DNA from: Candidatus Eiseniibacteriota bacterium
GTDB lineage: Bacteria > JAFGKV01
Assembly (NCBI GenBank): GCA_025453925.1
Contig: JALOPK010000001.1
Coordinates: 1 to 38,804 of the forward strand
Direction of reading: 5' to 3'
Length of the DNA: 38,804 nucleotides
The notes beneath the pieces are model-generated. The model made no database searches. It saw nothing but the letters and a program-made list of their open reading frames with translations, and was not told where the DNA came from. Of the stretch, positions 2,579 to 31,723 are shown piece by piece. How positions within the stretch are numbered: the stretch's first letter is position 1; every line of letters starts with the position of its first letter. A program made the translations under genes and the position numbers.

Positions 2579-2859
2579 ACGTGACGCCGCATGCTCATCC
2601 CCCAGATCGTGGCATGGCCGCCCCTCGGGAGCGATCTGTCTCCTGCGAGCCATGGTGGCCCGTGGCAGCACCACTTCTTGGTGGCGCGGCCCGCGCTCCC
2701 GCGGTGGGTCCGGTTCGCTTGGCGATGCCGACATTACGTGCTCAGCCCGACGTCAGTGGACTCCACACGTACCGGTCGAGTGTAGCTCCGGGCAGACTTC
2801 CCGAGTTGCCCAGGTATGTGGCAAGACGGAAAGCCCGGACACCTCAGATTGCAGGCGTG

Positions 2860-5423: not shown

Positions 5424-8400
5424 CTACTCACCGGCAAGCTCCTGCTGCACGAGGCTGAGATACGCCCGCGATTGACGCGAACGCAGCCCCAGGCGGGCCT
5501 TCTGGTCGGCGATCGCGGCGGACGGGTCTCTCCCCTGGTCACGATATGCGCGGGCGGCCCCGACGGCGACGGCGTCAAGTGACACCCCTCTCGCACCCCG
5601 TGGCTGTCTGGCAAGGATGAGTGTTCGGGCGGCGGTGGCGTACGCATCGAGTGCACAGTCAAGGGCTCCGTGGGCACCGCAGGTATCTCCGAGTTCCAGG
5701 AGCTGACCCGCGTAGGCGAGGGACGGCATGTTGAGGAAGTGGGCATTCGCTAGGGCCGCTGCGGCCTGATCAAAGCGACCCGATTCGCGGCAGGCCAGCG
5801 CAAGATCCCTCCAGTACACCGGCCACAGCGGCTCGAAGAACGCATTCGGCCGCCATGCCGCGGCGGCGCGCGCGAGGTGGGGGATCGCCTCCGCATACCG
5901 CCGTTCACTGCACATCAACATGCCGAGCTGGTGATGGAGCCACGGATCATCCCACAGGAGGAGCGCGTGCCCCAGCTCAGTCTCTGCAGCCTCGACGGCG
6001 CCCAGCATGAGCAGTGCGGTGGCGCGACGGCCCATCAGCTTGCCGTGGGCCACCGAGTTCCTCTCCGTGAGGCGTTCGAGGCGTTCGAGGGCGTCCAGCG
6101 CACGCTGTGGTTCATCCCACCGCCGGTACGCGGCAACCAGATTTGAGAGCACGTACCGCATCAACGCGGAGTCTCCCGTGCGCTCGGCGCGGGAGAGCAG
6201 GCGATCCGCCACCATTGTGAGGGATATGCCTCCCTCCGCCACGGAGACTGCCGTGCTCGGTTGTCCGGTGCGGCCGAGGTGAGAGTCGATGAGCTGAAGA
6301 AGCTCGGTGTCGACGAGGCCAGTCCGGGCGAAACGAGGCAGCGCCCCGGACAGCATGATATCACCCTGGGCGATTCGCCATTCAGGGCCGCGTAATGCGG
6401 CAGGGTCCAGAAACAGCGCGTCGGCGAAAGCTCCGAGCGCCCCCTCTTCGTCGCCTGCGGCGGCGAGCGCAGCACCAAGGTCCGCCTGAGGGACCTCTCC
6501 GTCCATCCCGAATGGGTCGAGTTCGACCGACCGCCGGAAGGCTCCGATGGCATCGTCGAGGCGCCCCTCCCGCCACAGCAGCCACCCGATCCTTGAATGA
6601 TAGGGTGCGTAGAGGTTGCGGCGACTCACAGCCGCCGCGTAGTGTGCGAGCGCCTTCTCGCCCGCGCTGATATCACCCAGCGCCGCCTGTATCTCCGCAT
6701 CCAACGGGTTGAGACGGCCCGCATGGCGCAGTCGATCCTCCCGCCCCGCGTCTCCCGCGCCGGGCGCCGCTTGTTTACCTGGCGCCCCCATGCTTTGGGA
6801 CGCCAAAGGTCGCACGACGAAGAGGAGGGCAGCGATGAACACACACGCCGCGGCCCAAATGGCGCCCGATCCCGAGTGATGCGGCTGACGACTCGCCGTT
6901 TCGGGGGCATCAGCCGCAGCGATCCGTTGCACCCCGTTGATGACTCCCAGAAGTACGAAGAAGCAGAGGGGAAGGACCGTACCCGTGCTCAGCGTCAGCA
7001 CCAGAACGTGCGGGACGAGAAGGGCCACAACTCCGGCACTGGCCGCCTCCGTCCGGGAACGGATTTCCTGGGCAACCGAAGGCCTCCGCAGACGCCGTAT
7101 CCCCGCGCACGCCGCCAGAATCACGGCAGCCAATGCAGCAACACCGAGCACGCCCGTGGACTCTGCGATCTCCAGCCCGAGATTGTGCGGATGCCATCCG
7201 ACGCGCCACTCGTTCAGGAGCGACTCGCGGATCGGCGCGAGGCCGCCGGCCTCGACGATTCCCGCCACAGGCACCCGGACCATGGCCGGGATGAGATGAT
7301 TCCCGAAGCCTACCCCGAGCAGCGGGCGATGCCCGATGACGTCAACCGTCAACCGCCACGTGGCCGCCCTGCGGGTGAGTTCCCCGCTTTCGGCGCGCAG
7401 CGACCACGCCAGCATCAGCATCGCCGCAGGCGCGAGGACCATAACCCACCACCACCCGACCTTCCGGCGTGGCCTCGTCAAGCGAAGAAGCAGTAGGGTC
7501 AAGAGGCCCGCGAGCAGCCCCGCGGCGGCAGAACGGGAGTAGGTGAGAACCGTGGGCGGGAGCAGCAGCGCGGCCGCGCCGATGGCCAGCCATCTCCGGG
7601 GGCCGGACCACGTCCCCGCCAGACTCGCGGCCAGGGTGATCATGGCCGCCCCGTAGGTGGCGAGACCGTTGGCGTGGAGTACGCGCAGCCCGAGCCGTGC
7701 CCGCAGCGCGGTCTCCCACCCCATCTTCGAGGCATAGGCGACCACCCCGGCCGCCGCCGCCGCCGCCACCACCGCCGCCACCGCAAGCAGGGTCGTGAGC
7801 AGCCGGTCCACACGGTCAAGACTGCGCACACTCCCCGCGACGAGAAAGAAGACGACCATCCAGGTCAGAAGCCTGACCCACACAGACAGGCTCTGGTGCG
7901 GATAGGGGGAGACCACAGTGGCGGCGAGGCCAACTGCCGCGAAGGCGAGGACGGCGAGATCCAGCATCGTGGGGCGGTCGAGTTCCAAGACTGCCAGGGA
8001 GGCGGTGATGAGCACGATCGCCGCCATCAGGGATCCACGGCTGCCCTCCAGGAGGAATAGATGCCCGTTCACCGCGCCGAAGGTCACGATTGCGGTGACT
8101 CCCATCCACACGGCGCCTCGGATGGGATCATCGCCCGCCGTTCCCCACACCGACGACACCAGGAATGCACCGTACACCAGTATCAGGAATGGGCTCAGGT
8201 TGACCGAGAAGACCGACCCGAGACTCGTCACCCGGGGAAGGTCGTGCACCGAATCAACGGTGATCAGGAACGCGCATGCCTCAACGGCGATGACTGCCAG
8301 CAGCGCCGGTACGTTCCGCGGGAGGCGAGGCCGCCGAGCCCGCCGCCATCGTTCCCACGCCATGACCGCGGCGAGCGTGGCCATGGTCAGCAGCCCCAAT

Positions 8401-8564
8401 CCCGTGACGGCCCGGCCTCCTGTGGCGCGCCAGAGCGGGAGAGTCGCGGCCAGAAGAACGACGATGGTCACCAGAGAGAAGGAGACGGCCGCCCACGGGG
8501 CCCGCCTTGAGGCACCCGCGCGCGAGCACGCAGTGCCCGCTCGACGCTCAGGCGAGGGCTGCAT
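5424..8564 (-). CDS. O-antigen ligase/polymerase family (Wzy_C-like) polytopic membrane protein fused to a ~430-aa C-terminal TPR-like domain
   Basis: The long ORF reaches 8732, but its first 56 codons overlap the upstream GT4, so I take ATG 8564 (17-nt overlap). It has many hydrophobic helices. Wzy_C-type blocks are TYSRSAAAGLLAGL, GVGFGN and HPHNLGLEIAESTGVLG. The C-terminal helical repeats look TPR-like (YHSRIGWLLWREGRLDDAIGAFRRSVELDP). Confidence 0.8.
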   Translation of the reverse strand: MQPSPERRAGTACSRAGASRRAPWAAVSFSLVTIVVLLAATLPLWRATGGRAVTGLGLLTMATLAAVMAWERWRRARRPRLPRNVPALLAVIAVEACAFLITVDSVHDLPRVTSLGSVFSVNLSPFLILVYGAFLVSSVWGTAGDDPIRGAVWMGVTAIVTFGAVNGHLFLLEGSRGSLMAAIVLITASLAVLELDRPTMLDLAVLAFAAVGLAATVVSPYPHQSLSVWVRLLTWMVVFFLVAGSVRSLDRVDRLLTTLLAVAAVVAAAAAAGVVAYASKMGWETALRARLGLRVLHANGLATYGAAMITLAASLAGTWSGPRRWLAIGAAALLLPPTVLTYSRSAAAGLLAGLLTLLLLRLTRPRRKVGWWWVMVLAPAAMLMLAWSLRAESGELTRRAATWRLTVDVIGHRPLLGVGFGNHLIPAMVRVPVAGIVEAGGLAPIRESLLNEWRVGWHPHNLGLEIAESTGVLGVAALAAVILAACAGIRRLRRPSVAQEIRSRTEAASAGVVALLVPHVLVLTLSTGTVLPLCFFVLLGVINGVQRIAAADAPETASRQPHHSGSGAIWAAACVFIAALLFVVRPLASQSMGAPGKQAAPGAGDAGREDRLRHAGRLNPLDAEIQAALGDISAGEKALAHYAAAVSRRNLYAPYHSRIGWLLWREGRLDDAIGAFRRSVELDPFGMDGEVPQADLGAALAAAGDEEGALGAFADALFLDPAALRGPEWRIAQGDIMLSGALPRFARTGLVDTELLQLIDSHLGRTGQPSTAVSVAEGGISLTMVADRLLSRAERTGDSALMRYVLSNLVAAYRRWDEPQRALDALERLERLTERNSVAHGKLMGRRATALLMLGAVEAAETELGHALLLWDDPWLHHQLGMLMCSERRYAEAIPHLARAAAAWRPNAFFEPLWPVYWRDLALACRESGRFDQAAAALANAHFLNMPSLAYAGQLLELGDTCGAHGALDCALDAYATAARTLILARQPRGARGVSLDAVAVGAARAYRDQGRDPSAAIADQKARLGLRSRQSRAYLSLVQQELAGE

Positions 8565-9759
8565 ACGCGTCGAGTAGGCGCGAGATGTGCGTCTCGGTGG
8601 AGAAGGTTTCAATGACACGCTTGCGGCCGGCCCGGCCCATGTCTTCCGCCTCTTGCGGGGCCGACCAGAGTCTGCGGATGGCCGTGGCCAAAGCGGCCGG
8701 GTCTCCTGGCGGCACCAGCACTCCGTCCACACCGTCCTTCACCACGTCGGGGATGCCGCCGATTCCGCTCGCCACCACGGGCTTCCCCGCGACCCATGAC
8801 TCAAGGATGGAAATCCCAAAGACTTCATACCAGATCGACGGCAGCACTGTGAGACGGCATCCCGCAATGGTCCGCCCCAGCCGGTCGCCCGCCAGATGGC
8901 CGAGAAATCGGACATTATTGAGGCCGAGTTCCGTGGACAGGCGCTCAAGATCCTCGCGCACCGGACCCTCGCCTGCCACAAAGAGCGGCACTTCGGGCAG
9001 TAGCCGCATGGCGCGCAGCAGGATGGGCAGGCCTTTCTCCCGTGAGAGCCTCCCCGCGAAGAGGACATACGGGCCTGCCTCCGGTTCGAGGAGGCGCGGC
9101 GTCACCGGCGCGAAATAGGGGATAACGGTCACCTGCCCGGGGCTCAGACCAAAGTCGATGACCTTCTGACGAACGAAGGCGGTGGGCGCGATAAGCCGTC
9201 GAGCGAAACCCTGGAATGCACCAATTGTCCTGTGTGCCGTCATTTCCGCGGCCGCCAGCAGGCTCCATGACCAGGTGCCGAGACACCGATGCGCCACCGC
9301 CTGCCAGAACCGGCCGCCGCGGCACCGCTCACATGGCCTGCCGTCCGTGAACAGGAGGTAGTTCGGGCAGATGAGCTTGTAGTCATTCAAAGTCTGCACG
9401 ACGGGGATTCCCCGACGAGTCATGGGGGGCAGAATCGAGGGTGAGAGATGGTGATAGATGTTGAAGACGTGCACGATGTCAGGCGCGAACGCGTCAAGCA
9501 CCCGTTCCATTCGCCGTGCCCCCTCGCGATACCATATCACGCGCCCTGCCACGCCCCACCTCTGTCGGCTGGAGAGCTGCCGGAAGTCGATCTCCGGCGG
9601 AAACAGGTCGGCAAAGCGCGCGGGCTCGTTGCGCGGGTGCGCCATGGTAAAGGTCTCGACGGCGTGCCCACGGTCCTCCAAGGCCCGCTTCACGCTGAAC
9701 AAATAGCGTTCCGTGCCGGAACGCACGAATCCGTGCTTGTTGACCAGCAGCACTCTCAT
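8548..9759 (-). CDS. GT4-family (GT-B) glycosyltransferase
   Basis: Start MRVLLVNKHGF at 9759 forms an ATGA overlap with the stop of the upstream gene (9756-9759). The sequence LFAGRLSREKG...EVFGISILESWVAGKPVV is the E-x7-E region typical of group-1 glycosyltransferases. The upstream part of the 585-aa ORF lies inside the neighbouring gene and is Arg/Pro-rich. Confidence 0.85.
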   Translation of the reverse strand: MRVLLVNKHGFVRSGTERYLFSVKRALEDRGHAVETFTMAHPRNEPARFADLFPPEIDFRQLSSRQRWGVAGRVIWYREGARRMERVLDAFAPDIVHVFNIYHHLSPSILPPMTRRGIPVVQTLNDYKLICPNYLLFTDGRPCERCRGGRFWQAVAHRCLGTWSWSLLAAAEMTAHRTIGAFQGFARRLIAPTAFVRQKVIDFGLSPGQVTVIPYFAPVTPRLLEPEAGPYVLFAGRLSREKGLPILLRAMRLLPEVPLFVAGEGPVREDLERLSTELGLNNVRFLGHLAGDRLGRTIAGCRLTVLPSIWYEVFGISILESWVAGKPVVASGIGGIPDVVKDGVDGVLVPPGDPAALATAIRRLWSAPQEAEDMGRAGRKRVIETFSTETHISRLLDAYAALA

Positions 9760-10701: not shown

Positions 10702-11748
10702 TCATGCCCCCCAGAGCAAAAGGTAGTGCTGAGCCAGGGCCTCCCAGGTATGGGCCGCGGCGAAGCAATGGGCCTGTTCGAGCATCTGCGCAGACGGGCC
10801 TTGGGCGATCACACGGAGCGCCTGATCGGCGAATGTGGCGGGATCAGGCGCGGTAAGGAACAGCTCCGACGCCTGTGGCATGAGCTTGAGATAGTCCTCC
10901 TTGACCGGGTTGTGGTACACCGTAAAGAGAGGACGTCGCCGTACCATGGTCTCCAGCATGGAGAGATAGCCCGACGTGAGCACCAGGGTCGACGACTCGA
11001 TGATCGGTCCGGGGTCGGGGATGAACCCATGGAACGTGGCACGGATGCCCTCATCCCGCGCGAGTTGCTCCAGTGTCGCGCGCCAAGGACCGTCACCGCA
11101 GACGGTAAGAGGGATGTCGATCCCGTGATGGTTTCTCAAGAGTCCAAGGCCGCGAAGATAGATGTCCAACCCCGTGTCGGGCGCCAGCCTTCCGACAAAC
11201 GCCGCGCTATGGGCCTCGGGCGCGGCGGGCACCAGTTCCGGCGCGGTGCAGGCACCGTAGGTGACCACGGTCGGATGGATGCCCAACCATCGCACCAGGA
11301 AATGGCCGATGCACAGCGACCCCCGCGTCAGCCGCTCTGCCATGTCGTGGTAGAGCCTGGCGCGCCTCTGTACAGGGATGCGCATCTCATACCCGTGGTA
11401 GGTCATGAAGCGGGGACGATGAGACGACAGCGCCAGAGACGGGCCCGTCCAATGGAGAAGGCTGTAGACGCCATGGAAATGGATGATGTCCGCGTCCAGA
11501 AGAAGATGCCGATGGTCCATCCACCATCGCCATGCGGCGGGATAGCGAGCCCGGCCCGCGCGGGTGGGCATCCGGAACACCCGCGCGTCGGCCAGCGAGT
11601 CTTCGTCGGGCAGGCGTGGATCGTGCTTCGGGGCCACGAGGGTCAGTGTGATGCCGTGGGAGGCGAGCGAGGGAACAAGCCCCGTCATGTGCCGCTCGAC
11701 ACCGCCGATCGCCGGCGGCAACCGCTCAGCCACCATCAGGACGCGCAT
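10702..11748 (-). CDS. GT4-like (GT-B) glycosyltransferase
   Basis: Start MRVLMVAERLPPAIGGVERH at ATG 11748 overlaps the upstream gene by 23 nt. The longer 409-aa version would overlap by about 200 nt. The stop lies 1 nt before the next gene's ATG. The GT-B-like layout is AFVGRLAPDTG...CGDGP. Confidence 0.75.
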   Translation of the reverse strand: MRVLMVAERLPPAIGGVERHMTGLVPSLASHGITLTLVAPKHDPRLPDEDSLADARVFRMPTRAGRARYPAAWRWWMDHRHLLLDADIIHFHGVYSLLHWTGPSLALSSHRPRFMTYHGYEMRIPVQRRARLYHDMAERLTRGSLCIGHFLVRWLGIHPTVVTYGACTAPELVPAAPEAHSAAFVGRLAPDTGLDIYLRGLGLLRNHHGIDIPLTVCGDGPWRATLEQLARDEGIRATFHGFIPDPGPIIESSTLVLTSGYLSMLETMVRRRPLFTVYHNPVKEDYLKLMPQASELFLTAPDPATFADQALRVIAQGPSAQMLEQAHCFAAAHTWEALAQHYLLLWGA

Positions 11749-14700
11749 GATCTCCCGTTCTCCCCTCGGTGGCCTTGTCATTGACCAAGGCCCAGTACGC
11801 CTCTCGCACACACCCCCGGCGCGGGACCAGATGGCCGTGCTCATCCGGGACTCGATCCCCCGGGATACCCATCCTGCGATAGTTTCGCCTGGTCTCGGAG
11901 GCCATGAGGCCAAGAAGCCGGCGGGTCTCACCGCTGAGCGACCCGTCTTCCTGCAGGCTGGTTACTCCCATCGCGACGAGGCGCAATGCCGACGAGTAAT
12001 CGGCCTGACCATAGGCAGTGCGGGCGAGGCCGAGCAGCCGTTCGGCATAGGTCTGGGTCGGCATGAGGAGGAAGTGCGCCATGGCATACGACCGGGCGGC
12101 ATCAGGGATTCTGCCCGCCTGTTGTTGTGCCTGGGCGAGATCGTGCCAGACTTGCCACCAAGAACCGTCTGCCGGCACGCCCGGGTCCCAGGACAGCGCG
12201 GCCAACTCCAACTCGCGAATGGCCTCCTCCCGGCGACCCTGCAGGGTGAGGGAGGCAGCGAGGAGGGCGCGGGCCTTGGCTCCATCGGAGCCCGCCAGGC
12301 ATGCTCGAAGTATGTTCTCTGATTCTTCTGGCCGTTTCTGCCCGAGTGCGGCAATGCCCGCCAGTTTCTGCAGGTGAGCCCGCTCCCGGCTTCCGCCCGG
12401 AAGGCGATCCACGAGTGAAGAGAGAACGCGAAAGGCCTCTTCTGGGAGTCCCCACCGCTCATACACGGCGGCGACTCTCTCACCGTGGCGCATCGTCGTG
12501 ACGGCATCGTGCGCGTGAGCGCCGGCCATGTACCGAGAGGCGAGGAGCGAGAACCCGATGCTGCCGCCCGAGGTGCGCGGCTTTTCGGCCGCGGCCCCCT
12601 GTCCGGTATGTTGTTCGATGATGCTGACCATCCGCGCATCCAGGACGCCGTTCGCGGCGAAACGCTCGAAGGCGGCGGAGAGCCGTATCTGGTCGTTTTC
12701 GAGGACCCAGTCGATCGGATTGATTGGATCGGCTGAAAGCCCCATGGCTCGCAAGAAGCACGTTACGGCCTCGTCGCCGCGGCCCGTGGCGACATACGCA
12801 AGGGCGAGGTCGGACATATGCTCTCGGAAGTTGGGACCGACCCAGGTCGCCAGGGTCAGATCCTGTGCCCGCTGCGAGATGAAGGCCTCGGACAGGCTCC
12901 GGCCAAGGGTTTCGTCCTGGATGCGGACAGCCTCCTCGAAATGGCCCAGCGCCTCCTCGAGTCGTTGCTGGCCCCAGAGGCGCCATCCCAGACGCACGTG
13001 GTAAGCGGGATGCCGCGGCCTCAGGCGGCACGCATCCCGGTACCACCGGAGGGCGTCTGCATCCCCCGCCAGATCGCCCGACAGCGCCCGCAGCTCGGCA
13101 TTCAGGGGCATCAGGCGGCACGCCATTTCGATGCGCGCCGGCGACGCCGGTGGTGGTGGCATGCACTTGTCCGCCCCGATAGATGTCCTCACGAGAGTCC
13201 CCGCGAGCATCGGCCGGACCACGCACACCAGCATGACCGTGATCACTGTCAGACTCAGCACGAGTGGTCGCCCCCTGACGCTGCGCAACCTCTCTTCCCT
13301 CGCCTCGAGTGCAGGCAATGACCCTCCCGCCGGGGGGTTCAGCCTTACCGTTGCCGCCGCAAGGCCCAGCAGGAGCCAGAACTCCAAAGGAAGCAAAGAC
13401 GGCGCGCTCAGGCTCAACACGAGCTGGTGCGGAATCAACAGGGAAACCATGGCCGCTCCTATCGCGGCGAGGACTCCACGGACGGGCCCCGCTGATCGTG
13501 ACCATCCCCGCACCACCAGGACGGCAGCCGCGGCGACCATGCCCAGGAAGACGACGAGCCCCGCGGCGCCCGCGCTTTCGAACACCTGCAGGAATAGGTT
13601 GTGGGAATGCCATTGGCTGGCCGGGCTCGCTAGAGGATCCGGATAAGCCCCCGCCGCCCACGCCGCCTGGTTGGCATTGAGGCCCCGGGGCAGGGGGTCG
13701 TAGAACGCCATCACGGCCGGATCGCCAAGCCCGCGTCCAAGAAACGGCCTCCGGGAGACGGAATCGGCCACCATGCGCCACACATTCCGCCGCCAGGATG
13801 CCTCCTGCTGACCCCAGAGCGTCACCAAGGCCCCGGCGACGACAATGAGAGCCCCCGCAGTCACCAGCGCGGGCAGGACGCGGCGCCACGCACTCTGGCG
13901 CGACAGCGGTCCCCTTCGAGCCGCCCACCCCAGCACCGCCAGCCCCGCCAGAAGCCCGGCCGCAGCGGAACGCGAGTACGTGAGCATGAGAATGGGGGCC
14001 GAGAACACCGCCGCGCCATGGGCCAACCCGACTGCCCACCCGGCCTTCCTCACTAAAGCGAAGAGCGCCCCCAAGACTACGATCACCCCCGCGGCGGCCG
14101 CCACGGGGACGATGCCTCTCATCGCGGGAGCGGAAGGGAGCTGCACACCGGCTCGGGCGGCGAGCGACACCCCCACCGATGCCACTGCCGCCGCCGCAGC
14201 CACCCCGATGGTGATCCGGCCCCCGGGAGACCGTGCCCGGAGCGCGCCGAGGGCCAGTGTTATTATGGTTGCCGCGTAGATACCCACGGCATTGGGGTGC
14301 ATGGAGGCCATGCTGAGGCGGGCACGAAGTGCGGCGCCCGCTGATGCATGCTGCGCATAGTTCCACACCCCGTGCAGCCCCGCCACAGCGAGGACGACTG
14401 CCACGGTCAGCATGACTCGCACCGTTCGCGGCGGGGTGCCGGCGTCACGGCTTCGCGACAAAAGCACGAAGGCGAGCGCTCCGGTCCCGAGGCGCATCAG
14501 CATCTCCGCGCTGTAGTGGACATACTGCGCCGTCACCGTGGCCAGGAGGGCGCAGCCCAGGAAGAGCCCCGTCATGACCTCCACGGCCGCGATTTCCCGT
14601 ACCCGGACGCCGCTGTCCCTCCTGATGGGGAGGTGCGCGACGCCGACCAGCAAGATCCCGCTGAGCAGAAAAAAACGCTCATCACCGAGCGCGAAGAACC

Positions 14701-15109
14701 CGCCGTTGAGCGCACCGTACGTGACGGCCGCCCACACCGCCGCTTCAACCATGGAGATCCGGCTCAGTGACACCATCAACGCCATCGAACCGATGAGCCC
14801 GTAATGGAGCAGCCTGTAGTAGGGGCCGAGATGAGTCTGCCATACCGACTGCTGGGTCACGACCTCTGGCAGGGACGCGATGGCTGCGGCAGTGATGAGG
14901 GTTCCTGCCGTTCCCACTGCCGCCAGGCCCAACGTCCTGGAGAAATCGATCCGAAGGCCTCGAACCGCAGTGGTCAGAACGGCGGAGCCGATGATCAGGA
15001 CGGTCACGCCGACCAACTCGACGATCACGGCAGCAGGAAGCAACCGGGCATAGGTGGCGCATACCCCGATGAGAAGCACGCCGGGTACGCTTTCGATCGC
15101 ACCCCTCAT
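11726..15109 (-). CDS. Second Wzy_C-like polytopic membrane protein with C-terminal TPR-like domain (full-length paralogue of 5424-8564)
   Basis: 1127 aa. ATG 15109 overlaps the upstream stop as ATGA. Wzy_C-type blocks are LTYSRSAAAGLLAGL, GRGLGD and WHSHNLFLQVFESAGAAGL. The C-terminal repeats are collinear with the paralogue (YHVRLGWRLWGQQRLEEALGHFEEAVRIQD; MAHFLLMPTQTYAERLL versus NAHFLNMPSLAYAGQLL). Confidence 0.8.
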   Translation of the reverse strand: MRGAIESVPGVLLIGVCATYARLLPAAVIVELVGVTVLIIGSAVLTTAVRGLRIDFSRTLGLAAVGTAGTLITAAAIASLPEVVTQQSVWQTHLGPYYRLLHYGLIGSMALMVSLSRISMVEAAVWAAVTYGALNGGFFALGDERFFLLSGILLVGVAHLPIRRDSGVRVREIAAVEVMTGLFLGCALLATVTAQYVHYSAEMLMRLGTGALAFVLLSRSRDAGTPPRTVRVMLTVAVVLAVAGLHGVWNYAQHASAGAALRARLSMASMHPNAVGIYAATIITLALGALRARSPGGRITIGVAAAAAVASVGVSLAARAGVQLPSAPAMRGIVPVAAAAGVIVVLGALFALVRKAGWAVGLAHGAAVFSAPILMLTYSRSAAAGLLAGLAVLGWAARRGPLSRQSAWRRVLPALVTAGALIVVAGALVTLWGQQEASWRRNVWRMVADSVSRRPFLGRGLGDPAVMAFYDPLPRGLNANQAAWAAGAYPDPLASPASQWHSHNLFLQVFESAGAAGLVVFLGMVAAAAVLVVRGWSRSAGPVRGVLAAIGAAMVSLLIPHQLVLSLSAPSLLPLEFWLLLGLAAATVRLNPPAGGSLPALEAREERLRSVRGRPLVLSLTVITVMLVCVVRPMLAGTLVRTSIGADKCMPPPPASPARIEMACRLMPLNAELRALSGDLAGDADALRWYRDACRLRPRHPAYHVRLGWRLWGQQRLEEALGHFEEAVRIQDETLGRSLSEAFISQRAQDLTLATWVGPNFREHMSDLALAYVATGRGDEAVTCFLRAMGLSADPINPIDWVLENDQIRLSAAFERFAANGVLDARMVSIIEQHTGQGAAAEKPRTSGGSIGFSLLASRYMAGAHAHDAVTTMRHGERVAAVYERWGLPEEAFRVLSSLVDRLPGGSRERAHLQKLAGIAALGQKRPEESENILRACLAGSDGAKARALLAASLTLQGRREEAIRELELAALSWDPGVPADGSWWQVWHDLAQAQQQAGRIPDAARSYAMAHFLLMPTQTYAERLLGLARTAYGQADYSSALRLVAMGVTSLQEDGSLSGETRRLLGLMASETRRNYRRMGIPGDRVPDEHGHLVPRRGCVREAYWALVNDKATEGRTGDHARPDGG

Positions 15110-19822: not shown

Positions 19823-20776
19823 TCAGGGCTTGCCTATGGGCACGCCGTCCGGGCTCATCGCCTCCAGGAGGCAGGCGAGATCCACACATCGGGTTCGCTG
19901 GATACCGCGGCGGGCACGGAGCGTGGCACCCATCCGAAGGAACGCCTCGCAATAGCCGCGAAACGCCGCCCCCCGATGGGGAGCATGCCGGAGTGCCGCC
20001 GCCCATGTGTGCCCGATACCCCCGAGGCGAGGCTTGATGAGTCCCCACGGCATGTTCTTCAGGTACACCGTGACCCGGTTCCGGTACACCAGTCTCATCT
20101 GAGCGCTCGATCCCCGGCCGAACGTGGCACTCCGGTCGTGATGAACCACGGCATCAGGGACATAGACGCAGCGGTGTCCCAGGAGTCGGGCGCGGAATCC
20201 GAAGTCGATGTCATCGCTGTAGATGAAAAGGCTCTCATCGAGCGAGCCCACACGCTCGAAGACTCCCCTTCGGTAGATCGATGCCGCACCGGTCGCGGTG
20301 AAGACCTCACACGGGGTATCAAACGCGGGTCCATCCGGTTCTCCGTGACCCCGCATGATGCCTCCGATCAGAGGATCGAAGGCGTCGCCCGCGGAGTCGA
20401 TCCGGCGTGGATCGGAGGCAAGGAGGAGCCGGCACGCCGCGAATGAGAACACCGGCGCCTCCTCCAGCGCAGACTGCAGCGCCTCCAACCATGTCGGGGT
20501 GGGATAGGCATCACTGTCCAGAGTGACGATGAAATCTCCCGAGGCCGCCTTGACCCCCGCGTTCACGCCGCCTGACGTGCCGAGGTTACGCGGGAGTCGA
20601 ACCACTTTCACCCAAGGATACTCCCCGCGCATGGTCTTCACCGTGTCGTCGCTGGACGCATTGTCCACCACGATTATCTCTTCCGGCCGCCGCGTCTGAC
20701 TGGCAAGGCGTTGGAGGCACCGCCTGAGCCGTGGCAGTGCGTTCCAGGTCGGGATGACTACCGAGACGGACGCCAT
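19823..20776 (-). CDS. GT2-family glycosyltransferase
   Basis: 317 aa with ATG at 20776. Supporting blocks are MASVSVVIPTWNALPRLRRCLQRLASQTRRPEEIIVVDNASSDDT, TLDSDAY and YSDDIDFGFRARLLG. Confidence 0.85.
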   Translation of the reverse strand: MASVSVVIPTWNALPRLRRCLQRLASQTRRPEEIIVVDNASSDDTVKTMRGEYPWVKVVRLPRNLGTSGGVNAGVKAASGDFIVTLDSDAYPTPTWLEALQSALEEAPVFSFAACRLLLASDPRRIDSAGDAFDPLIGGIMRGHGEPDGPAFDTPCEVFTATGAASIYRRGVFERVGSLDESLFIYSDDIDFGFRARLLGHRCVYVPDAVVHHDRSATFGRGSSAQMRLVYRNRVTVYLKNMPWGLIKPRLGGIGHTWAAALRHAPHRGAAFRGYCEAFLRMGATLRARRGIQRTRCVDLACLLEAMSPDGVPIGKP

Positions 20777-20866: not shown

Positions 20867-22303
20867 CTATTCAGCGAACATGGATCGGCCATCCATGTAA
20901 CGGGGAACGGCCTCATCGAGCGCGTGGAGCACGGTCGGCGCCACATCCATGATTGAGACGCATGCTTCACGCAAGGCGCCACATCCCGGCCCCCGGGCGT
21001 AGAGCACGCCCACGGGGCGATGACTTCCCCGATTCTCCACGGAGTTCGCCGTCGCCTCCAGGGAGGACCGAATCGTGAACTGGCCCATGAGGCGAATCCC
21101 CTCATCATGGGGCATAAGGAGCATGTCGGGCGCCCCGGCTGCATGGAGCCCGGCGTAGATGTCATCCCGTGGGACCACCGCCCTTAGCAACGGACTGCCC
21201 TCGTCGTCACGGCAGGCGAGGAGATCGTCGGCCAGCCTGACGCTCAGGTCTCTCTGCTCCGTCCCGGTCGTGATCACGCCATCCGGTTCGCGCCCCTTAA
21301 TGTTGAGCCAGAGCCCGGGACATTCTACGTAGAGCCCGCCGAACGCGCGGGTCCTCCGCCAATCCACCCTGAGCCGCGGAGGGCCGAGCTCTACCCGGGG
21401 CCGCCACCCCCTTGCAGGACGTCGCAGGCGTCTCACGCGAAGCTTGTGGCCGCGATGGAGACGGAGAAACCCGTGCTCGCGGAGCCAGACGTTGACATGA
21501 AACAGATGGCGGCATGGACCGAAACCGTGGTCAGACATCACGATGACCGTCGTCTCGGACCCGGTGGCCTCGAGCAACCGACCCAGCGTCGCGTCCAACG
21601 TCTCGTATGCTGCTTCAACGGCCGCGCCGGGCTCCCCACCGGGCGCACCTTCCGTCTCCCTGGCCTCTGTCTCACCCCAGAGCATGTGTTGGACCTTGTC
21701 GGCCAAGGTGAACACCACCATGAAGAGGTCCCATTGCTCCTGCCCCAAGAGCCAGAGTGCCGCGTCGCGTCTCGCCGCATGTCTCCGCGCGAGTTGCGCG
21801 CTCAGGTGGCCGGCGTCGAGCGTGTCGAGGTCGCCAAAGCCGTCCGCCTGGTAGTCGGGAATTCGCGTGCGCAAGTGATCGGCCACCGCAGCGGGAAATG
21901 TGAAGTCGGATCGCATTCCCGGAGTGGGCAAACCGGTCACCATTACCCCGTTCACCGGTCGGGGGGGAAACGTCAGCGGCACGTTCAGGGAGCAGACCCG
22001 GCGCCCGCGTCGGCTGAGTATCTGCTCCAGGGTTGCCGCGCCGATGTCCGCGCTGCTCACCAGTGGCCATTCATAGCCCGAACGGCGCCAGAACCCGAAC
22101 GCGCCGTGTTTCCCCGGGTTCACGCCCGTTCTGCAACTCGTCCACGCAGGGGCGGAGTTGGCCGGGAATGTTGACTGAAGACGCCCCGCGCAGCCCTCCG
22201 CCATGAGCCGCGCGAGGACCGGAAGCCGACGGGCATTCACCATTCGGTCGGCGACAGCCGGCTCGAGACCGTCGAGGCCGACCAACAGGACCCGGGCTCC
22301 CAT
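20867..22303 (-). CDS. Alkaline-phosphatase superfamily protein, NPP/type I phosphodiesterase-like, with no signal peptide
   Basis: 478 aa. Supporting blocks are MGARVLLVGLDGLEP (metal Asp), FPANSAPAWTSCRTGVNPGKHG (nucleophile loop), VIVMSDHGFG (DH codons 21527-21532) and GSHRPVGVL. Confidence 0.8.
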   Translation of the reverse strand: MGARVLLVGLDGLEPAVADRMVNARRLPVLARLMAEGCAGRLQSTFPANSAPAWTSCRTGVNPGKHGAFGFWRRSGYEWPLVSSADIGAATLEQILSRRGRRVCSLNVPLTFPPRPVNGVMVTGLPTPGMRSDFTFPAAVADHLRTRIPDYQADGFGDLDTLDAGHLSAQLARRHAARRDAALWLLGQEQWDLFMVVFTLADKVQHMLWGETEARETEGAPGGEPGAAVEAAYETLDATLGRLLEATGSETTVIVMSDHGFGPCRHLFHVNVWLREHGFLRLHRGHKLRVRRLRRPARGWRPRVELGPPRLRVDWRRTRAFGGLYVECPGLWLNIKGREPDGVITTGTEQRDLSVRLADDLLACRDDEGSPLLRAVVPRDDIYAGLHAAGAPDMLLMPHDEGIRLMGQFTIRSSLEATANSVENRGSHRPVGVLYARGPGCGALREACVSIMDVAPTVLHALDEAVPRYMDGRSMFAE

Positions 22304-22306
22304 TGC

Positions 22307-23806
22307 CTACCCCAGATACCCCAGAGCCCGCAGATGTGCCTCCACACCTTGCCGCTCGACGGCGGACAGTTCCTGCGCTGCAGAGCGGGGCAGACCATCG
22401 GGCGAGGCAACTACACGAACAGGATGATCCCGCAACCAAGAGTCATCAAACAGCTCCGTCGCCACCGTTCCTTCCATGTGGCCGGGCACCGGCACACCGA
22501 GGATATGGAGAACAGTCGGTGCGATATCCGTGAGCCGCATGGGCACCGCATCCCCATCCCCGGCGCAATCCCCGGCCAGAGCCAGCACTCCTCCGCCGAT
22601 CATATGGAACTCACCTTCCGGAGCCGGACCCATCACCGAGCTGGCATCCAGGGAAGGGCATGTCGCGATTCCCTCGTCGGCCGGCTCAACTACCAAGTCA
22701 GGCAAAGGGATCAGGCCGGGCCCGGCAGACAGGTTCTCGCGGATCAAGACATTGCCCACGGCCGGCAGATCGGCGATGCTGTCCCGGATGAATCTCGCGC
22801 GGGCGGCGCGATCAGTGAGAGGCGCCCGGGAAGCATCGCTTCCCACAGGTGCCCCGGATCTCCCCCCGCATGAGAGAAAGACCCCGGCGTCGTCGGCAAG
22901 GGCCGCCGTCCGTTTCCCGTCTACGCCGCGGCGTTGCCCGAGTTCTCCGGGGAGTGCGCACTGCTCCATCAAGAAACGGCACGCCGACGAGTCCCGCCTC
23001 GACAACCGCCGCAGCGCGCGCCGCGCCGTGCCGGATGGAGAAAGCCGGAGCAAACCCTGTTGTTCCAGCCAGGCATTGAGGTGAAGATGGCTTCGCACCG
23101 TCGCGGCGTGTGTTGGCGACACCAGCAGCAGTGCCCGCGCGGGTATCTCCGAGATCAACAGGCGAAGGAGGGCGTCGAGCCCGTCCGGCATCCCGGGCGT
23201 TGCACCGGTTCGCGCGCGGGAGCCACGCGCCCGCCTCGCCCCGGCAAGATGCCGAAAGCCAATGGCGATGAGGTCACTGTCCTGCTGGTCCCGCATCCAG
23301 CGCACCATGCGGATGACCCCCTCTGCGCGGCGAACGCCTTCAGTGGTCTCAACGGAGGCCAGGGTTGCCCGGTCCGAGGGCGGCATCGCCTCCCACAGCC
23401 CCCGCGGGAAGCTGTCCCATGGGTCGGGAGGCATGGTCAATGCCACGCCGTTGATGGCCGCCGGCGGCCAGGTGAGTGGAACGCCCACCGCCGCCACCCG
23501 CAGGCCTGCTTCCCCGGCGACGGCAAGGAGGCTGGGGAACGCCAGCCGCCAGATCGAAGGGCCCGCGCGCTCCGGGCCCCCGTCCACACTCCGCCCTCCC
23601 CACACCCCGTGGGCGGATGGCTCGACACCCGTGTGCACCGTGGCCCAGGCCGCCGCCTGGCTGCGGGCGAGACCGGCCGAAAAGATGCCCTGAGAGCCTC
23701 CATCGAGGAATGGGCGGAGGGCGGGCTGGCCCGCGCGGCGTTCCGCGTTGCCGACGGACGAGGGAGTCAGCCCTTCCGTTGCGAGTACGATGACCGGAGA
23801 ACCCAC
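22307..23806 (-). CDS. Paralogue of the NPP-like protein with substituted metal-ligand motifs (possible pseudoenzyme)
   Basis: GTG 23806 aligns residue-for-residue with Met1 of the downstream paralogue (VGSPVIVLATEGL versus MGARVLLVGLDGL). The upstream part of the 575-aa ORF is Arg-rich junk. D becomes E in ATEGL, and SDHG becomes SPTH (nt 23108-23119). The stop lies 3 nt before the next ATG. Confidence 0.7.
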   Translation of the reverse strand: MGSPVIVLATEGLTPSSVGNAERRAGQPALRPFLDGGSQGIFSAGLARSQAAAWATVHTGVEPSAHGVWGGRSVDGGPERAGPSIWRLAFPSLLAVAGEAGLRVAAVGVPLTWPPAAINGVALTMPPDPWDSFPRGLWEAMPPSDRATLASVETTEGVRRAEGVIRMVRWMRDQQDSDLIAIGFRHLAGARRARGSRARTGATPGMPDGLDALLRLLISEIPARALLLVSPTHAATVRSHLHLNAWLEQQGLLRLSPSGTARRALRRLSRRDSSACRFLMEQCALPGELGQRRGVDGKRTAALADDAGVFLSCGGRSGAPVGSDASRAPLTDRAARARFIRDSIADLPAVGNVLIRENLSAGPGLIPLPDLVVEPADEGIATCPSLDASSVMGPAPEGEFHMIGGGVLALAGDCAGDGDAVPMRLTDIAPTVLHILGVPVPGHMEGTVATELFDDSWLRDHPVRVVASPDGLPRSAAQELSAVERQGVEAHLRALGYLG

Positions 23807-24218
23807 TATGGAGTCCCGCGCGCAACAGAGAGAGGCGAGGCCACTGGTTCGCCGGGCATTCCCACTTCCGCGGGACGGTTCTCGCAGGATTTCAGGATCA
23901 TCCGTCGTTGAGAGTGCCGGTGATCGGCGTTCCCGCCGACCGGTCGTGAGAGGAATGGATCGGCGCGGCGTGGCGGCACACCCGTCTCTGTGAAGAGGAA
24001 CGGCTGCCCGCCCTTCAAATGCGGCGCACAGCATTCCGTTTCGTCACGGACTCGGTGCACATGCGTGGGGCGAGCCGTTCTGGTCGCCGGAATCGCGCGC
24101 CCGCCCCGCTGAGAGAACGAAGTTGAACGGGCCGCCCGCATACCACGGGAGCCCCTCGGTGGGGAAACCGCCCGGCCGACGCCCTGCCGCGAGATCACTG
24201 GCCGCCGCGATCCAGGTA

Positions 24219-25430
24219 TCAGCCCGATGCGGCGCCCAGGGCGAACTGTACACCCAGCGCCTCGCTACGCGACGTCGGTATGCGAAACCCAGTTGCACCA
24301 AGGCGCAGGCGCAGGGGGCCGGGTCTCAACTCCAGCCCGGCGGCCATACCGAAGCCTTCCGGCCGACCCGCTCCCAACTCCAGCCATGTTCGCAGCCATG
24401 CCCGGGCATCCCAGATCAGACCAGCATGCACGCGGGGCGATGTGGTGACACCGGCCCAGGAGCGCAGTCCCTGGTTCCATCGCGCGTAGGCGCCGCCCCA
24501 CGGGAGCCGGCGGCCGATGTGCACTTCCATCCGGGCAGGTAAGGGCGTCGACCACCGACCGACGTCGTACGTGCTGTCGGAGCTGACATACCCGCTATCT
24601 CCCAATTCCGCGGTCCATTCCTCCGCCTGGAACTCGACCAGCTTCTCCTCGACCCCCTTCCAGGAGAGTGAGGGTCCCAGATCCTTGAGCACGATCTCCA
24701 GCTCCCACTGGTCCCTGGCCGCGCGGCCGCCGAGGTCGAGCGCGACGCCGACGGGAAGGCGGGACTCCGGGTCGTCCGTCGTGCGCCGTACGACGGTGAC
24801 ACCTTCCGCGGTGAGGCCCTCTACTTCGGTAAGTACCGCGAACGAACTCCTCGTGATCTTGGCGGCGAGGACGCCCAACACGATTCGGGCGCCAATCCCC
24901 GACGAGGTTTCCCATCCGGCTATCCGGCCGCTTGGGAACCCGTATGATCCGCCGGCGGACAGGTAGGTCAACATGCCACCCGAGTTCAGCAGTTCATAGC
25001 GGCGATCCAGTGCATTGCCGAAGAACATCAGGTCGATGAGGTCCTTATCGAGGCTCAGGTCTCCCCCCAGATAGGCCCTCGTGATGAAGGCCGCCCGGCC
25101 GACGCGTATTCCCAACGCCTCAGCCTCGCCCTGCAGGAACCCCCTGGCGGTCTTCCCGGAGATGCTCTCCAGGATCGTCCTCTTGTCGTCTTCGTCGAGG
25201 TACTCCCCGCTGTACCTGCGATAGAGGTCCAAGCTCACGGCATTGTTGCGGACCGCCACGCTCCCATGCACCAGGTAGGCCTCCCAGGCCCCCATGGCGG
25301 GATCGGCCAGAGCGGCTGGGTTGGCGAGCCACGCGACTCCTGACCCTGACCATCCGCCGGGCGCTGCCCATGCCGCGCCGGCGGTCATCAGAGATATGAT
25401 CAGCCACACCGCGGGGTTACATGTCATCAT
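24219..25430 (-). CDS. Secreted protein, putative outer-membrane beta-barrel (weak FadL/PorV-like N-terminal motif)
   Basis: ATG 25430 or 25427 gives MMTCNPAVWLIISLMTAGAAWA, a signal peptide. This start overlaps the upstream gene by 11-14 nt. An ANPAALA motif sits near the mature N-terminus. The sequence has alternating amphipathic Gly/aromatic-rich stretches to the C-terminus. Function is not established. Confidence 0.55.
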   Translation of the reverse strand: MMTCNPAVWLIISLMTAGAAWAAPGGWSGSGVAWLANPAALADPAMGAWEAYLVHGSVAVRNNAVSLDLYRRYSGEYLDEDDKRTILESISGKTARGFLQGEAEALGIRVGRAAFITRAYLGGDLSLDKDLIDLMFFGNALDRRYELLNSGGMLTYLSAGGSYGFPSGRIAGWETSSGIGARIVLGVLAAKITRSSFAVLTEVEGLTAEGVTVVRRTTDDPESRLPVGVALDLGGRAARDQWELEIVLKDLGPSLSWKGVEEKLVEFQAEEWTAELGDSGYVSSDSTYDVGRWSTPLPARMEVHIGRRLPWGGAYARWNQGLRSWAGVTTSPRVHAGLIWDARAWLRTWLELGAGRPEGFGMAAGLELRPGPLRLRLGATGFRIPTSRSEALGVQFALGAASG

Positions 25431-26577
25431 CGAGCTCGATGCGCGACGTAATGCCCATGAGTATCCTGGCGGAAATGGAGTCGTCCGCACAGATGCAGAT
25501 CCGGCGCGTGCCCGATCCATCCAACAGATACTCCACGGCTGCGTACAGCGTATCGTTCCCCGGGCCGGGGTTCGCGAAGAGGCCCAACTGGTCCTCATCA
25601 AGACTCACGCTGGTCTGCGCATGCGCCACGCCCGTGGATTTGCCGGTGATGGGGTCCACCGATGGGGCCTCGAACGCGAAAGGCCCGATCAGCAGTTCCG
25701 GATCATCCCATAATCGCAGTGAATCGTTGTCAACCCGGACGCAGGCGTGTCCGCCGAGCGGCAGGTTGTTGTCGACATCGGCAATAATGAGAGCCGCACG
25801 GAGATTCTCGGTCAGGTCGCCTTCGACGTCCGCATCGTCGGAGTCGCCGTCAGCCGGATCAATCACCAGCTTCTGCACGATGGAGCGTCGATCCACATCC
25901 GCGCCGTCAAAGGTCAAGTCGAATGCGGTGAGCAGCGATACCTGCACCGACAGGGTCGCCTGGGGACCGACCGGCCGGCCCTGCGCCGTATACGCCAGCG
26001 TACTGGTCGCCGCATAGCTGTCGGGGACGGCATGAGTCGGGGAGGGATTGATGAAGATCAAGATCTGGGGGTCGGTCACGAGGTGGGTCGAGACGATCTC
26101 TTCACCACTGAGTGACGAGGGGGCGTTCACGGAAACACGCAACGGCCCGGATGGCCGCCCATCGTCATCCCAGCCTTCTATCGCCGTCTCGATTTCCACA
26201 GTGCCCGGCAGATTGTGCCTGACGACAATCTCGAGCCAGGCGCGGTAGAACGAGGGATTCTCCAGCTCATCCAGGGGATTGCCGCTCCATGTGGCGGTGC
26301 CACCAGGGATTACCGCCTCCCCCTGGGTAGGCAAGCCCTGAAGGGTGGCCGGGTCGGCGACGATCACGTCGGACACGACGCTGGCGACCACGCTATCCGA
26401 ATCCATCAGGCGAAACGGGCCATACTCGCCGAAGAAGAAGTCGCCCTCGGCGCCAACCAGCTCGCGCACGAATGCGGTGCGTGAAACCAACGGCACGTTG
26501 GCAGTCACGTCCCACGTCGGGGCCTTCGGGCTTGGGATGGAGCAACCGGCGACCAGCAGAATGAGAAGTCGGCGCAT
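25417..26577 (-). CDS. Acidic lipoprotein of unknown function (first gene of the long minus-strand operon)
   Basis: 386 aa. The N-terminus MRRLLILLVAGCS is a lipobox. A strong AGGAGG site (26583-26588, minus strand) lies 5 nt upstream of ATG 26577. I recognise no family. Confidence 0.65.
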   Translation of the reverse strand: MRRLLILLVAGCSIPSPKAPTWDVTANVPLVSRTAFVRELVGAEGDFFFGEYGPFRLMDSDSVVASVVSDVIVADPATLQGLPTQGEAVIPGGTATWSGNPLDELENPSFYRAWLEIVVRHNLPGTVEIETAIEGWDDDGRPSGPLRVSVNAPSSLSGEEIVSTHLVTDPQILIFINPSPTHAVPDSYAATSTLAYTAQGRPVGPQATLSVQVSLLTAFDLTFDGADVDRRSIVQKLVIDPADGDSDDADVEGDLTENLRAALIIADVDNNLPLGGHACVRVDNDSLRLWDDPELLIGPFAFEAPSVDPITGKSTGVAHAQTSVSLDEDQLGLFANPGPGNDTLYAAVEYLLDGSGTRRICICADDSISARILMGITSRIELDDDM

Positions 26578-30676: not shown

Positions 30677-31723
30677 ATGTGCTCGCTCCGAAGGTCACGA
30701 CATCGCCTGCGACGCTCGATCAAGCATATGCTTGCCCGGCGACACGAGCGCCGCAGAGTGCTCAATATTGTCATCGCGACTTTGGCAAGTGCCGTCTTCC
30801 TGTGGGTCGCCGTGCACATCATACCGGGATTCCTTGCCCGGGTGGGAGAGAAGACGCTGGGCGTGGCCGCCGCAAAAGGCAATGCCGACCTGATGCGGAT
30901 CCTCCTGAGCCTTGGTATCGAACCGGGGACGCCCGATCCCTTCGGCCTCACGCCCCTCCACCGCGCGGCGTACCAAGGAAGGGTCGACCTCGTCGAACTC
31001 CTGCTGCAGCGCGGCGCCAACCCCGGATTCCCCGGCCAGGGCGGCATGACCCCGCTCCATCTGGCGACCATGTCGGGGTATGATCAGATCGTCAACCGTC
31101 TCATCGCGGCAGGTGCGCCCATTGGCTCAGAGGACACCAAGGGGAGAACCCCGCTCTTCTACGCCGTCGCCCGCAACTTCAGGCCGATCGCCGATTCGCT
31201 TATCGCCCACGGCGGAGACATCGATGATCGGGATATGCTCGGTCAATCCGTGCTGCACCACACGATCCAAGGAGGGCGGGTCGAATCAGCCGAACTCGCG
31301 CTCGCGCTCGGGGCCGATCCCGAAGCCGCCGACAGCACCGGCGTGCGGCCACTGCACCAGGCCGCCCGTCGCGGCCTGCTCTCCGTGATGGATCTCCTCC
31401 TCGCTCGTGGAGCAGAGCTTCAGGCCGAAGCACTGGATGGGCAGTCGCCCCTTCACTACGCGGTCAACGGGGGGCAACTGGAGGCAGCCCAACTCCTCAT
31501 CGAGCGAGGCGCCAAGGTCAACATACCCATGGACCGGGGCGTTACCCCGCTTCACGCAGCCGTCATTTCCCGCAACTACGAGATGGTGCGCCTGCTTCTC
31601 GAACGAGGCGCTGACATCAACGCAGTGACCGACAAGGGGTGGACTCCGCTTCACTACGCCGCGTCGGCGGGCGAGAGCAAGATCATCAAGCTTCTCACCC
31701 AGTACGGGGCTCGGTACACCTAG
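30677..31723 (+). CDS. N-terminally membrane-anchored ankyrin-repeat protein (~9 ANK repeats)
   Basis: 348 aa. A basic tail is followed by the TM helix VLNIVIATLASAVFLWVAVHIIPGFL. About nine 33-aa repeats follow, of the type G.TPLH.AA..G....V.LLL..GA (for example GLTPLHRAAYQGRVDLVELLLQRGANP and GWTPLHYAASAGESKIIKLLTQYGA). An alternative start is ATG 30728. Confidence 0.85.
   Translation: MCSLRRSRHRLRRSIKHMLARRHERRRVLNIVIATLASAVFLWVAVHIIPGFLARVGEKTLGVAAAKGNADLMRILLSLGIEPGTPDPFGLTPLHRAAYQGRVDLVELLLQRGANPGFPGQGGMTPLHLATMSGYDQIVNRLIAAGAPIGSEDTKGRTPLFYAVARNFRPIADSLIAHGGDIDDRDMLGQSVLHHTIQGGRVESAELALALGADPEAADSTGVRPLHQAARRGLLSVMDLLLARGAELQAEALDGQSPLHYAVNGGQLEAAQLLIERGAKVNIPMDRGVTPLHAAVISRNYEMVRLLLERGADINAVTDKGWTPLHYAASAGESKIIKLLTQYGARYT

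Follow-up and report, generated by a model that had tools for sequence, protein, structure and literature searches.

Two adjacent genes can encode an enzyme together with a paralogue that no longer has a complete active site. Is such a paralogue a partner of the enzyme, or is it the remains of one? The question is raised by a gene pair in a DNA stretch of 38,804 nucleotides from Candidatus Eiseniibacteriota bacterium (assembly GCA_025453925.1, contig JALOPK010000001.1, positions 1 to 38,804), which is referred to below, in its entire length, as the window. The two genes, here called A and B, are located on the minus strand and encode members of the alkaline phosphatase (AlkP) superfamily. The pair is part of a polysaccharide cluster on the same strand, in which A is followed 3' by GT2, Wzx-type flippase, GT2, GT4, Wzy_C-TPR, GT4, GT4 and Wzy_C-TPR genes. 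A first-pass annotation of the window described A as intact and B as a candidate pseudoenzyme, and suggested that the products form an active/inactive heteromer. The analysis presented here leads to a different emphasis. The explanation that we prefer, and to which we give about an even chance, is that B is a catalytically dead, eroding, non-catalytic remnant of a once-active partner, and that A alone does the chemistry.

Architecture of the gene pair

The two neighbouring open reading frames (ORFs), reported in the first pass to be 3 nt apart, were found as described, and the spacer was read directly on the minus strand (Table 1). The arrangement of the junction would suit translational coupling. 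The proposed paralogy extends over the full length of the proteins: A and B align end to end in BLASTP (25% identity, E 2e-21), and a family hidden Markov model (HMM) of 80 intact members, which gives 474 bits for A and 159 bits for B, aligns through the insertion in both. With PF01663 the score of A is 131.3 bits (E 8e-38), above the gathering cut-off of 23, and that of B is 22.4 bits, i.e., just under this cut-off. The sequence surrounding the altered SPTH motif of B also still aligns, as had been noted, with the segment HLHLNAWLEQQGLLRL paired with HLFHVNVWLREHGFLRL in the A/B alignment. Neither product has a signal peptide, in agreement with the earlier observation; the first residues of each protein form the first beta-strand, with no leader peptide, and both are, as judged by sequence, cytoplasmic.

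Table 1. Positions of the A/B gene pair, its active-site codons and adjoining elements in the window
Feature	Position	Strand	Remarks
Gene A, intact AlkP-superfamily (PF01663 / COG3379-type) enzyme	20867–22303	minus	478 residues; ATG start; without C-terminal LGY tail
Gene B, degenerate paralogue of A	22307–23806	minus	499 residues from GTG 23806; AlkP fold predicted to be kept; most catalytic residues gone
A/B junction	22304–22309	minus	B stop codon TAG 22307–22309; 3-nt spacer gca 22304–22306; A ATG at 22303
First metal-ligand Asp: D11 in A (22271–22273), E11 in B	23774–23776 (B)	minus	read from the alignments
Nucleophile: S50 in A (22154–22156), Q50 in B	23657–23659 (B)	minus	replaced in B
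D...H pair of FTxxDxxxHxxW: D202/H206 in A (21686–21700), A188...R192 in B	23231–23245 (B)	minus	replaced in B
DH of SDHG: D258/H259 in A (21527–21532), T232-H233 in B	23108–23113 (B)	minus	Asp lost, His kept in B
Last metal-ligand His: H428 in A (21020–21022), H401 in B	22604–22606 (B)	minus	retained in B, within EFHM
C-terminal tail of B, VEAHLRALGYLG	22310–22345	minus	family-wide ...RLRxLGY[LVI]x motif
Non-coding leader 5' of B	23807–24218	minus	longer ORF to ATG 24034 unused
GT2 glycosyltransferase, third member of the B-A-GT2 module	19823–20776	minus	conserved in relatives

The reading frame of B remains open upstream to an ATG at 24034. The GTG at 23806, from which the first pass had aligned the protein, is regarded as the B start codon because it is here that the similarity to A and to intact relatives sets in, because the codon-position GC content is coding-like in 22307–23806 (0.74/0.57/0.75) and not in 23807–24034 (0.67/0.70/0.58), and because the variation 5' of 23806 is that of a non-coding stretch; the NCBI annotation likewise gives a product of 499 residues. 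This variation was seen in comparison with close relatives, i.e., the metagenome contigs X4, X5 and X8 (sediment, freshwater), pieces of which are roughly 92–95% identical to the locus. The variants 5' of 23806 are distributed as 6/6/3 over the codon positions, without third-position bias, and the leader has nine insertions or deletions (indels) at 24029–24161 (130 nt) in a relative ~92–95% identical. The ATG at 24034 was rejected as the start on these grounds, as was a 393-residue JGI call for B (P0001), since homology to A and to intact B begins at the GTG. The leader (~410 nt, 23807–24218), behind which B is apparently the first gene, gave no match to Rfam, to a sigma-70 promoter or to an intrinsic terminator, and the locus contains neither Rfam matches nor tRNAs.

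Active sites of A and B

The enzymes NPP, PhnA and alkaline phosphatase use a two-metal, covalent Ser/Thr mechanism. The six ligands of the bimetal site (Asp; Asp + His; Asp-His; His) are all present in A, where every invariant catalytic column of a 69-sequence alignment is retained (D11, D202, H206, D258, H259, H428). The motifs VGLDGL, SDHG and GSHR, on which the first-pass description of A as intact was based, are thus accompanied by the complete set of ligands and by S50. The Asp and Asp-His ligands of PhnA and ENPP1 have D11 and SDHG as their counterparts in the alignment. S50, located where the helix that follows strand 2 begins, aligns with T64, the nucleophile of PhnA and the residue altered in the T64A entry 3t02, as well as with the T of PTKTFPN in ENPP1. 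A therefore has the Ser/Thr nucleophile feature; B, with Q50, does not.

The ligands of B were read from the HMM of 80 intact family members and from an independent 68-sequence MAFFT alignment, which agree with each other. Only two of the six are found. The counterparts of the A motifs are ATEGL and, at 23108–23119, SPTH. The replacement of Asp by Glu in ATEGL, pointed out in the first pass, is seen as E11. The same annotation held that both the Asp and the His ligands were lost in VSPTH. This statement is correct for the Asp (T232), but the His is kept, because H233 aligns with the His that is invariant in the DHG motif; the Gly of this motif is deleted. A better alignment that restored the Asp and His ligands had been named as evidence against the loss; the profile alignments restore two His residues (H233 and H401) and no Asp. 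Two further changes had been missed, i.e., the replacement of the nucleophile (Q50) and the loss of the D...H pair (A188/R192), and in the FTxxDxxxHxxW region of B the family HMM fails to align hmm positions 150–243.

Taken together, B is replaced at five of the seven canonical active-site positions (the nucleophile and four of the six metal ligands) and reads as catalytically degenerate. Because the absence of these five positions is incompatible with a two-metal, covalent Ser/Thr mechanism, the protein would be catalytically dead.

Predicted fold and relation to known enzymes

AlphaFold2 models were obtained for both proteins. The model of A has a mean predicted local distance difference test score (pLDDT) of 94.8 and a predicted template modelling score (pTM) of 0.94. 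For B, where the model is driven by the alignment of intact homologues, these values are 78 and 0.84, with pLDDT <50 at residues 196–205. Foldseek searches of the PDB with either model returned Xac NPP, PhnA, ENPP4/5/6/7, ENPP1/3 and SPAP, the top matches (Xac NPP, PhnA, ENPP6 and SPAP; for A, Xac NPP and PhnA were best) with a probability of 1.00, at template modelling (TM) scores on the target of 0.65–0.70 for A and 0.55–0.62 for B. Because NPP, PhnA and SPAP structures are returned also for the B model, B is predicted to still hold the AlkP alpha/beta core fold.

This core is common to A, B, NPP (Xanthomonas NPP 2gsn/7mw8), PhnA (1ei6, 3szy) and PF01663, and the layout of the NPP and PhnA active sites, in which strand 1 is followed by an Asp ligand, a helix N-terminus carries the Ser/Thr nucleophile, and D...H, DH and a final His supply the other ligands, is found also in A. 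In contrast to NPP and PhnA, to which they are only about 15% identical, A and B contain a ~160-residue insertion between DHG and the last His, would be cytoplasmic and are encoded in a glycan cluster; B, in addition, has neither the nucleophile nor four of the ligands. A closer relationship is found to COG3379, annotated as "predicted AlkP superfamily phosphohydrolase/phosphomutase" (about 550 residues; Chloroflexota and Actinomycetota metagenome-assembled genomes, MAGs), of which both proteins are members by HMM. B keeps the RLRxLGY tail of this family, and A is a member of a subclade that has no tail and a length of about 480 residues. No characterised member of COG3379 was found in the literature searched, and searches for COG3379, for PF01663 together with polysaccharide and for AlkP pseudoenzymes yielded nothing usable.

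As for the substrate, a phosphodiester or pyrophosphate, as put forward in the first pass, would be a guess from the fold. The fold points to a phosphodiester or phosphomonoester substrate, or to phosphoryl transfer, and the predicted cytoplasmic location together with the fixed GT2 neighbour suggests a nucleotide- or lipid-linked glycan intermediate.

A conserved B-A-GT2 module

About 20 orthologues of A were identified, 44–51% identical and all of about 480 residues. The flanks of A-type genes were examined in eleven independent contexts, and in ten of these the tail-less A-type gene is preceded by a tail-bearing B-type gene, which supports the earlier view that the two genes form a pair. 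The gene 3' of A in the examined contexts is always a GT2 of about 315 residues. Because the same order recurs in the relatives, B-type, A-type and GT2 are regarded as a conserved module, although B and A are separated by a methyltransferase gene in L008.

An intact B-type protein is present in eight contexts; it has 534–561 residues (PF01663) and is encoded 5' of A in L002/L003, L004/L005, L006, L007, L008/L009, L014 and the P0013 contig. These proteins have the motifs SDHGFG, SGxHR and FTxxDRxxHxxW and end in a ...EAHLRxLGY[ILV]x tail. In the remainder of their clusters a fused ABC exporter and sulfotransferases are encoded, in some cases together with a third COG3379 protein. Such a third paralogue (556–562 residues) is seen at 7738–9408 in L002 and at 9753–11441 in L006, in ABC-transporter/sulfotransferase clusters; up to three COG3379-family enzymes may act in one glycan pathway.

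Among the examined contexts, only the window and L001 have a degenerate B. Hence, the pairing of an active with an inactive protein, as proposed in the first pass, is not the general arrangement: the usual pair has both enzymes intact, and the dead state is confined to these two lineages. Two active paralogues next to a GT2 are both the common arrangement and the ancestral one. L001 is also the only context that shares the synteny of the window (Wzx, GT2, GT4, Wzy_C-TPR), at identities of 69% for GT2 (the closest GT2), 60% for Wzx and 55% for GT4. Its gene upstream of A encodes a stub of 292 residues, without the whole insertion domain and with ATHG in place of SDHG, which ends in IEAHLRALGYVG and is 49% identical to B of the window over the last 78 residues.

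The closest relative of the L001 A protein is that of L015 (64% identical). No B-like sequence was found on either strand in about 1 kb 5' of the L015 A gene; positions 1–1080 of L015 contain no called gene, and every frame on both strands is interrupted or unrelated. The N-terminal extension of the database protein P0025 (525 residues) is spurious, its true start being at MPARVMVIGLDG.

A of the window and A of L001 are 46% identical, and the adjacent GT2 proteins 69%, whereas in the lineages with intact B the A and GT2 proteins diverge about equally (54–69%). A may have shifted its pace or its specificity once its partner B died.

Selection on A and B

Selection was estimated by the Nei-Gojobori method, which ignores transition bias, on the codons covered by the relative X4. 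The estimates are from Logan contigs of essentially one relative lineage, with 73 substitutions. For A (371 codons; relative roughly 95% identical in A) the synonymous (dS) and nonsynonymous (dN) divergences are 0.12 and 0.015, respectively, which corresponds to a ratio (omega) of 0.13. For B (370 codons) dS is 0.10, dN 0.057 and omega 0.58. B is thus 4.5-fold less constrained than A (Fisher p = 0.001), but its omega is under 1 (binomial p = 0.02 overall), in particular in residues 1–260 (about 0.37, p = 0.008).

The frame of B is open in the relatives, where no stop codon was found. The sole credible indel is a cluster of three one-base insertions in X5, all within 6 nt, with a net change of +3 nt that restores the frame. 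A single-base insertion at 23014 in X7/X9 was disregarded, as these contigs are unrelated and match only partially, over 34 nt. The dead state of B is shared by X4/X8/X5. The neighbourhood of the nucleophile position varies among these close relatives (S49N, S49D, Q50E); in SPTH only synonymous changes are seen, at 23108 and 23111, and the tail shows no amino-acid change.

At larger distances, B of the window is 33% identical to intact B-type proteins in the catalytic N-terminal core, 22% in the region of the lost D...H pair, 27% in the insertion domain and 41–45% in the last 80 residues, compared with 61/44/43/45% in the same four regions for A and its orthologues. The last 80 residues of B are therefore as conserved relative to intact B as is the C-terminus of A relative to its orthologues (45%).

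Distribution of B and of its C-terminal tail

At E <= 0.001, B is matched by more than 4,600 cluster representatives. The 149 nearest of these all contain xDHG, which B alone is without, and 139 of them have the tail; the next-best HMMER match to B is 32% identical. A word-indexed search of 5.8 billion proteins gave six matches to B, none of them close, and scans of genome contigs and metagenome contigs with this single protein gave no close relatives. An alignment-based genome scan with B returned only distant intact members, from Anaerolineales and Actinomycetes MAGs. The L001 stub is unique as well: used as a query, it found nothing but its own sequence and P0280, which was rejected as a relative because it is an unrelated C-terminal fragment in a polyketide synthase (PKS) cluster.

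The ...RLRxLGY[LVI]x tail follows a conserved acidic stretch and ends 101 of the 129 first-collected family proteins; the coherent exception is the A-type clade, of which all 20 proteins are without it. No Pfam model of this tail and no literature on it were found. Three membrane-anchored relatives of the family, P0003, P0004 and P0006, have Pro at the nucleophile position, GDPG in place of SDHG and Gln in place of the last His, and contain the LGY motif both at the N-terminus, before the transmembrane segments, and at the C-terminus. By sequence they form another non-catalytic lineage within the family, independent of that of B. Like B, they are degenerate and LGY-bearing; unlike B, they have a multi-pass membrane N-domain and another architecture, with about 40% identity over only the last 100 residues of B.

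Remnant, pseudogene or subunit?

According to the preferred explanation, the ancestral three-gene module, composed of a tail-bearing COG3379 B-type protein, a tail-less A-type protein and a GT2, would have served a cytoplasmic glycan-assembly step in which both AlkP enzymes were active. In the lineage with the Wzx/Wzy-TPR cluster, i.e., the window and L001, the chemistry of B would have become dispensable; B has lost the nucleophile and four of the six metal ligands. Its ORF has stayed open, and is probably translated, under relaxed but non-zero purifying selection. The residual role of B would be non-catalytic, e.g., support or docking for A, carriage of the RLRxLGY tail, or simply leading ribosomes along the transcript as far as the coupled A start codon. 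The intact and strongly constrained A would perform the phosphoryl-transfer step alone.

B does not read as a plain pseudogene because, at ~30% identity to intact B, it is complete, foldable and open over 499 codons, with no indels other than in-frame ones and omega <1. It is not a tightly conserved pseudoenzyme either, because its constraint is 4.5-fold weaker than that of A, L001 has only a stub, L015 has no B, and no family of such proteins is seen. The pattern fits erosion of a dispensable function at least as well as a dedicated pseudoenzyme partner.

Several observations weigh against the remnant explanation. In residues 261–499 of B omega is about 0.8, i.e., indistinguishable from neutrality, a value that also conflicts with the tail region being the selected part. 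That B can be lost altogether is suggested by its truncation in L001 and by its absence in L015. The RNA runs searched for the locus do not contain it. An exhaustive HMMER search of 1.84 billion representative proteins returned no close or degenerate relative of B of the window, and because no other degenerate relative is found among so many representatives, the dead form is not a successful, conserved family. Finally, the window and L001 are not sisters in a neighbour-joining tree of the A proteins, in conflict with GT2 identity and synteny, by which they are; the inactivation of B may go back to one ancient event or to two independent ones.

It is possible, although we find it doubtful, that B is a pseudogene in waiting, i.e., that it encodes a protein without a role. 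The frame would have stayed open because of the short time elapsed, or because early termination in the leading gene of a long and tightly packed operon would have polar effects on A and the downstream glycan genes; in the polarity version, what is selected is translation across B rather than the B protein. The overall omega of 0.58, the near-neutral value in residues 261–499 (not significantly <1), the drift of active-site positions among close relatives and the progression to 292 residues in L001 and to nothing in L015 all favour such a state. Polarity would also agree with the position of B as the apparent first gene after the leader, with its stop codon 3 nt from the start of A and its tail codons overlapping the likely ribosome-binding region of A. 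However, the low omega of residues 1–260 speaks against this reading, and at about 30% identity to intact B the protein still scores 159 bits with the family HMM, keeps the fold-defining Gly/Pro/Trp columns and gives a complete AlkP model. The probability that a 499-codon frame is open by chance at 66% GC, estimated from base composition, is about 5e-6, and the copies in the window and in L001 are 41–53% identical over the last 80 residues despite their deep split.

The heteromer proposed in the first-pass annotation amounts to a stronger version of the remnant explanation if B is taken to be a non-catalytic subunit on which the A-B complex depends and which supplies, e.g., the RLRxLGY tail that A lacks, for docking or assembly; the complex would act on a cytoplasmic phosphodiester or pyrophosphate glycan intermediate. 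We consider this model unlikely. It would account for the consistent lack of the tail in A-type proteins (20/20) in a family where sampled members mostly have it (101/129 and 139/149), for the tail-bearing B-type gene in front of A in 10/11 contexts, and for the observation that both degenerate copies are best preserved in the tail and the last beta-alpha unit. It does not account for the A gene of L015, which has no adjacent B, or for the methyltransferase gene that splits the pair in L008, and relaxed selection on B, notably in its C-terminal half, is not expected for an obligate subunit.

A related idea, more speculative still, is that the RLRxLGY tail is a docking or assembly peptide through which A-type enzymes are recruited to the membrane glycan-assembly machinery via their tail-bearing partner, and that B has here become a pure adaptor. 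If so, the core of such an adaptor may decay while the last beta-alpha unit and the tail persist, and a two-component architecture, catalytic plus targeting, would apply to a very large uncharacterised enzyme family. Least probable of all is neofunctionalisation of B into a new enzyme, a substrate-binding protein or a regulatory protein in which E11, H233 and H401 bind a single metal or ligand: two invariant His residues are kept, the first Asp is replaced conservatively by Glu and SPTH changes only synonymously in the relatives, but omega is raised, the nucleophile position drifts, the segment for the other site-1 ligands is disordered in the B model and no clade of similar proteins exists.

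Pseudoenzyme paralogues encoded beside active relatives are a general phenomenon. As in these cases, a dead copy is located here beside a live one, with its fold kept, its catalytic residues replaced and its ORF maintained. Unlike in stable pseudoenzyme families, the dead B is lineage-restricted and weakly constrained, and forms an erosion series from a full-length dead protein via a 292-residue stub to absence. A dead paralogue beside a live one is unsurprising and of a known kind, and the lead provided by the module and the tail may outweigh the finding itself. The locus illustrates cleanly, and in a way that can be dated, how one of the two enzymes of a conserved pair decays inside otherwise conserved glycan clusters, and it points to a very large, unstudied AlkP subfamily with a conserved B-A-GT2 module and tail. 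If the tail is a docking signal, the dead B would be a natural separation-of-function mutant with which this role could be dissected. For the present, the main use of the finding is in annotation: B should not be labelled an active phosphodiesterase, and A is the candidate enzyme.

Other features of the window

Other genes of the AlkP superfamily are found at 260–2578 and 2575–5232 on the plus strand, where two tandem PF00884 genes (sulfatase / LtaS-like; 772 and 885 residues) overlap by 4 nt. The Wzy_C-TPR genes at 5424–8732 and 11726–15109 on the minus strand are paralogues that encode proteins of 1102 and 1127 residues, in which a Wzy_C (O-antigen ligase/polymerase-like) membrane domain is fused to a long TPR region; proteins of the same kind are encoded in L001.

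Located 5' of the cluster, also on the minus strand, are two ORFs without a Pfam match, at 24219–25601 and 25417–26577. Because the maximal ORFs overlap by 185 nt, the start of the former is probably further in. The latter begins with MRRLLILLVAGCS, which resembles a lipoprotein signal. On the plus strand, 30677–31723 encodes a 348-residue protein composed almost wholly of ankyrin repeats (Ank_2, 277 bits), unusual for a bacterial glycan locus, which adjoins genes for a UDP-glucose dehydrogenase, a DegT aminotransferase and an ABC exporter.

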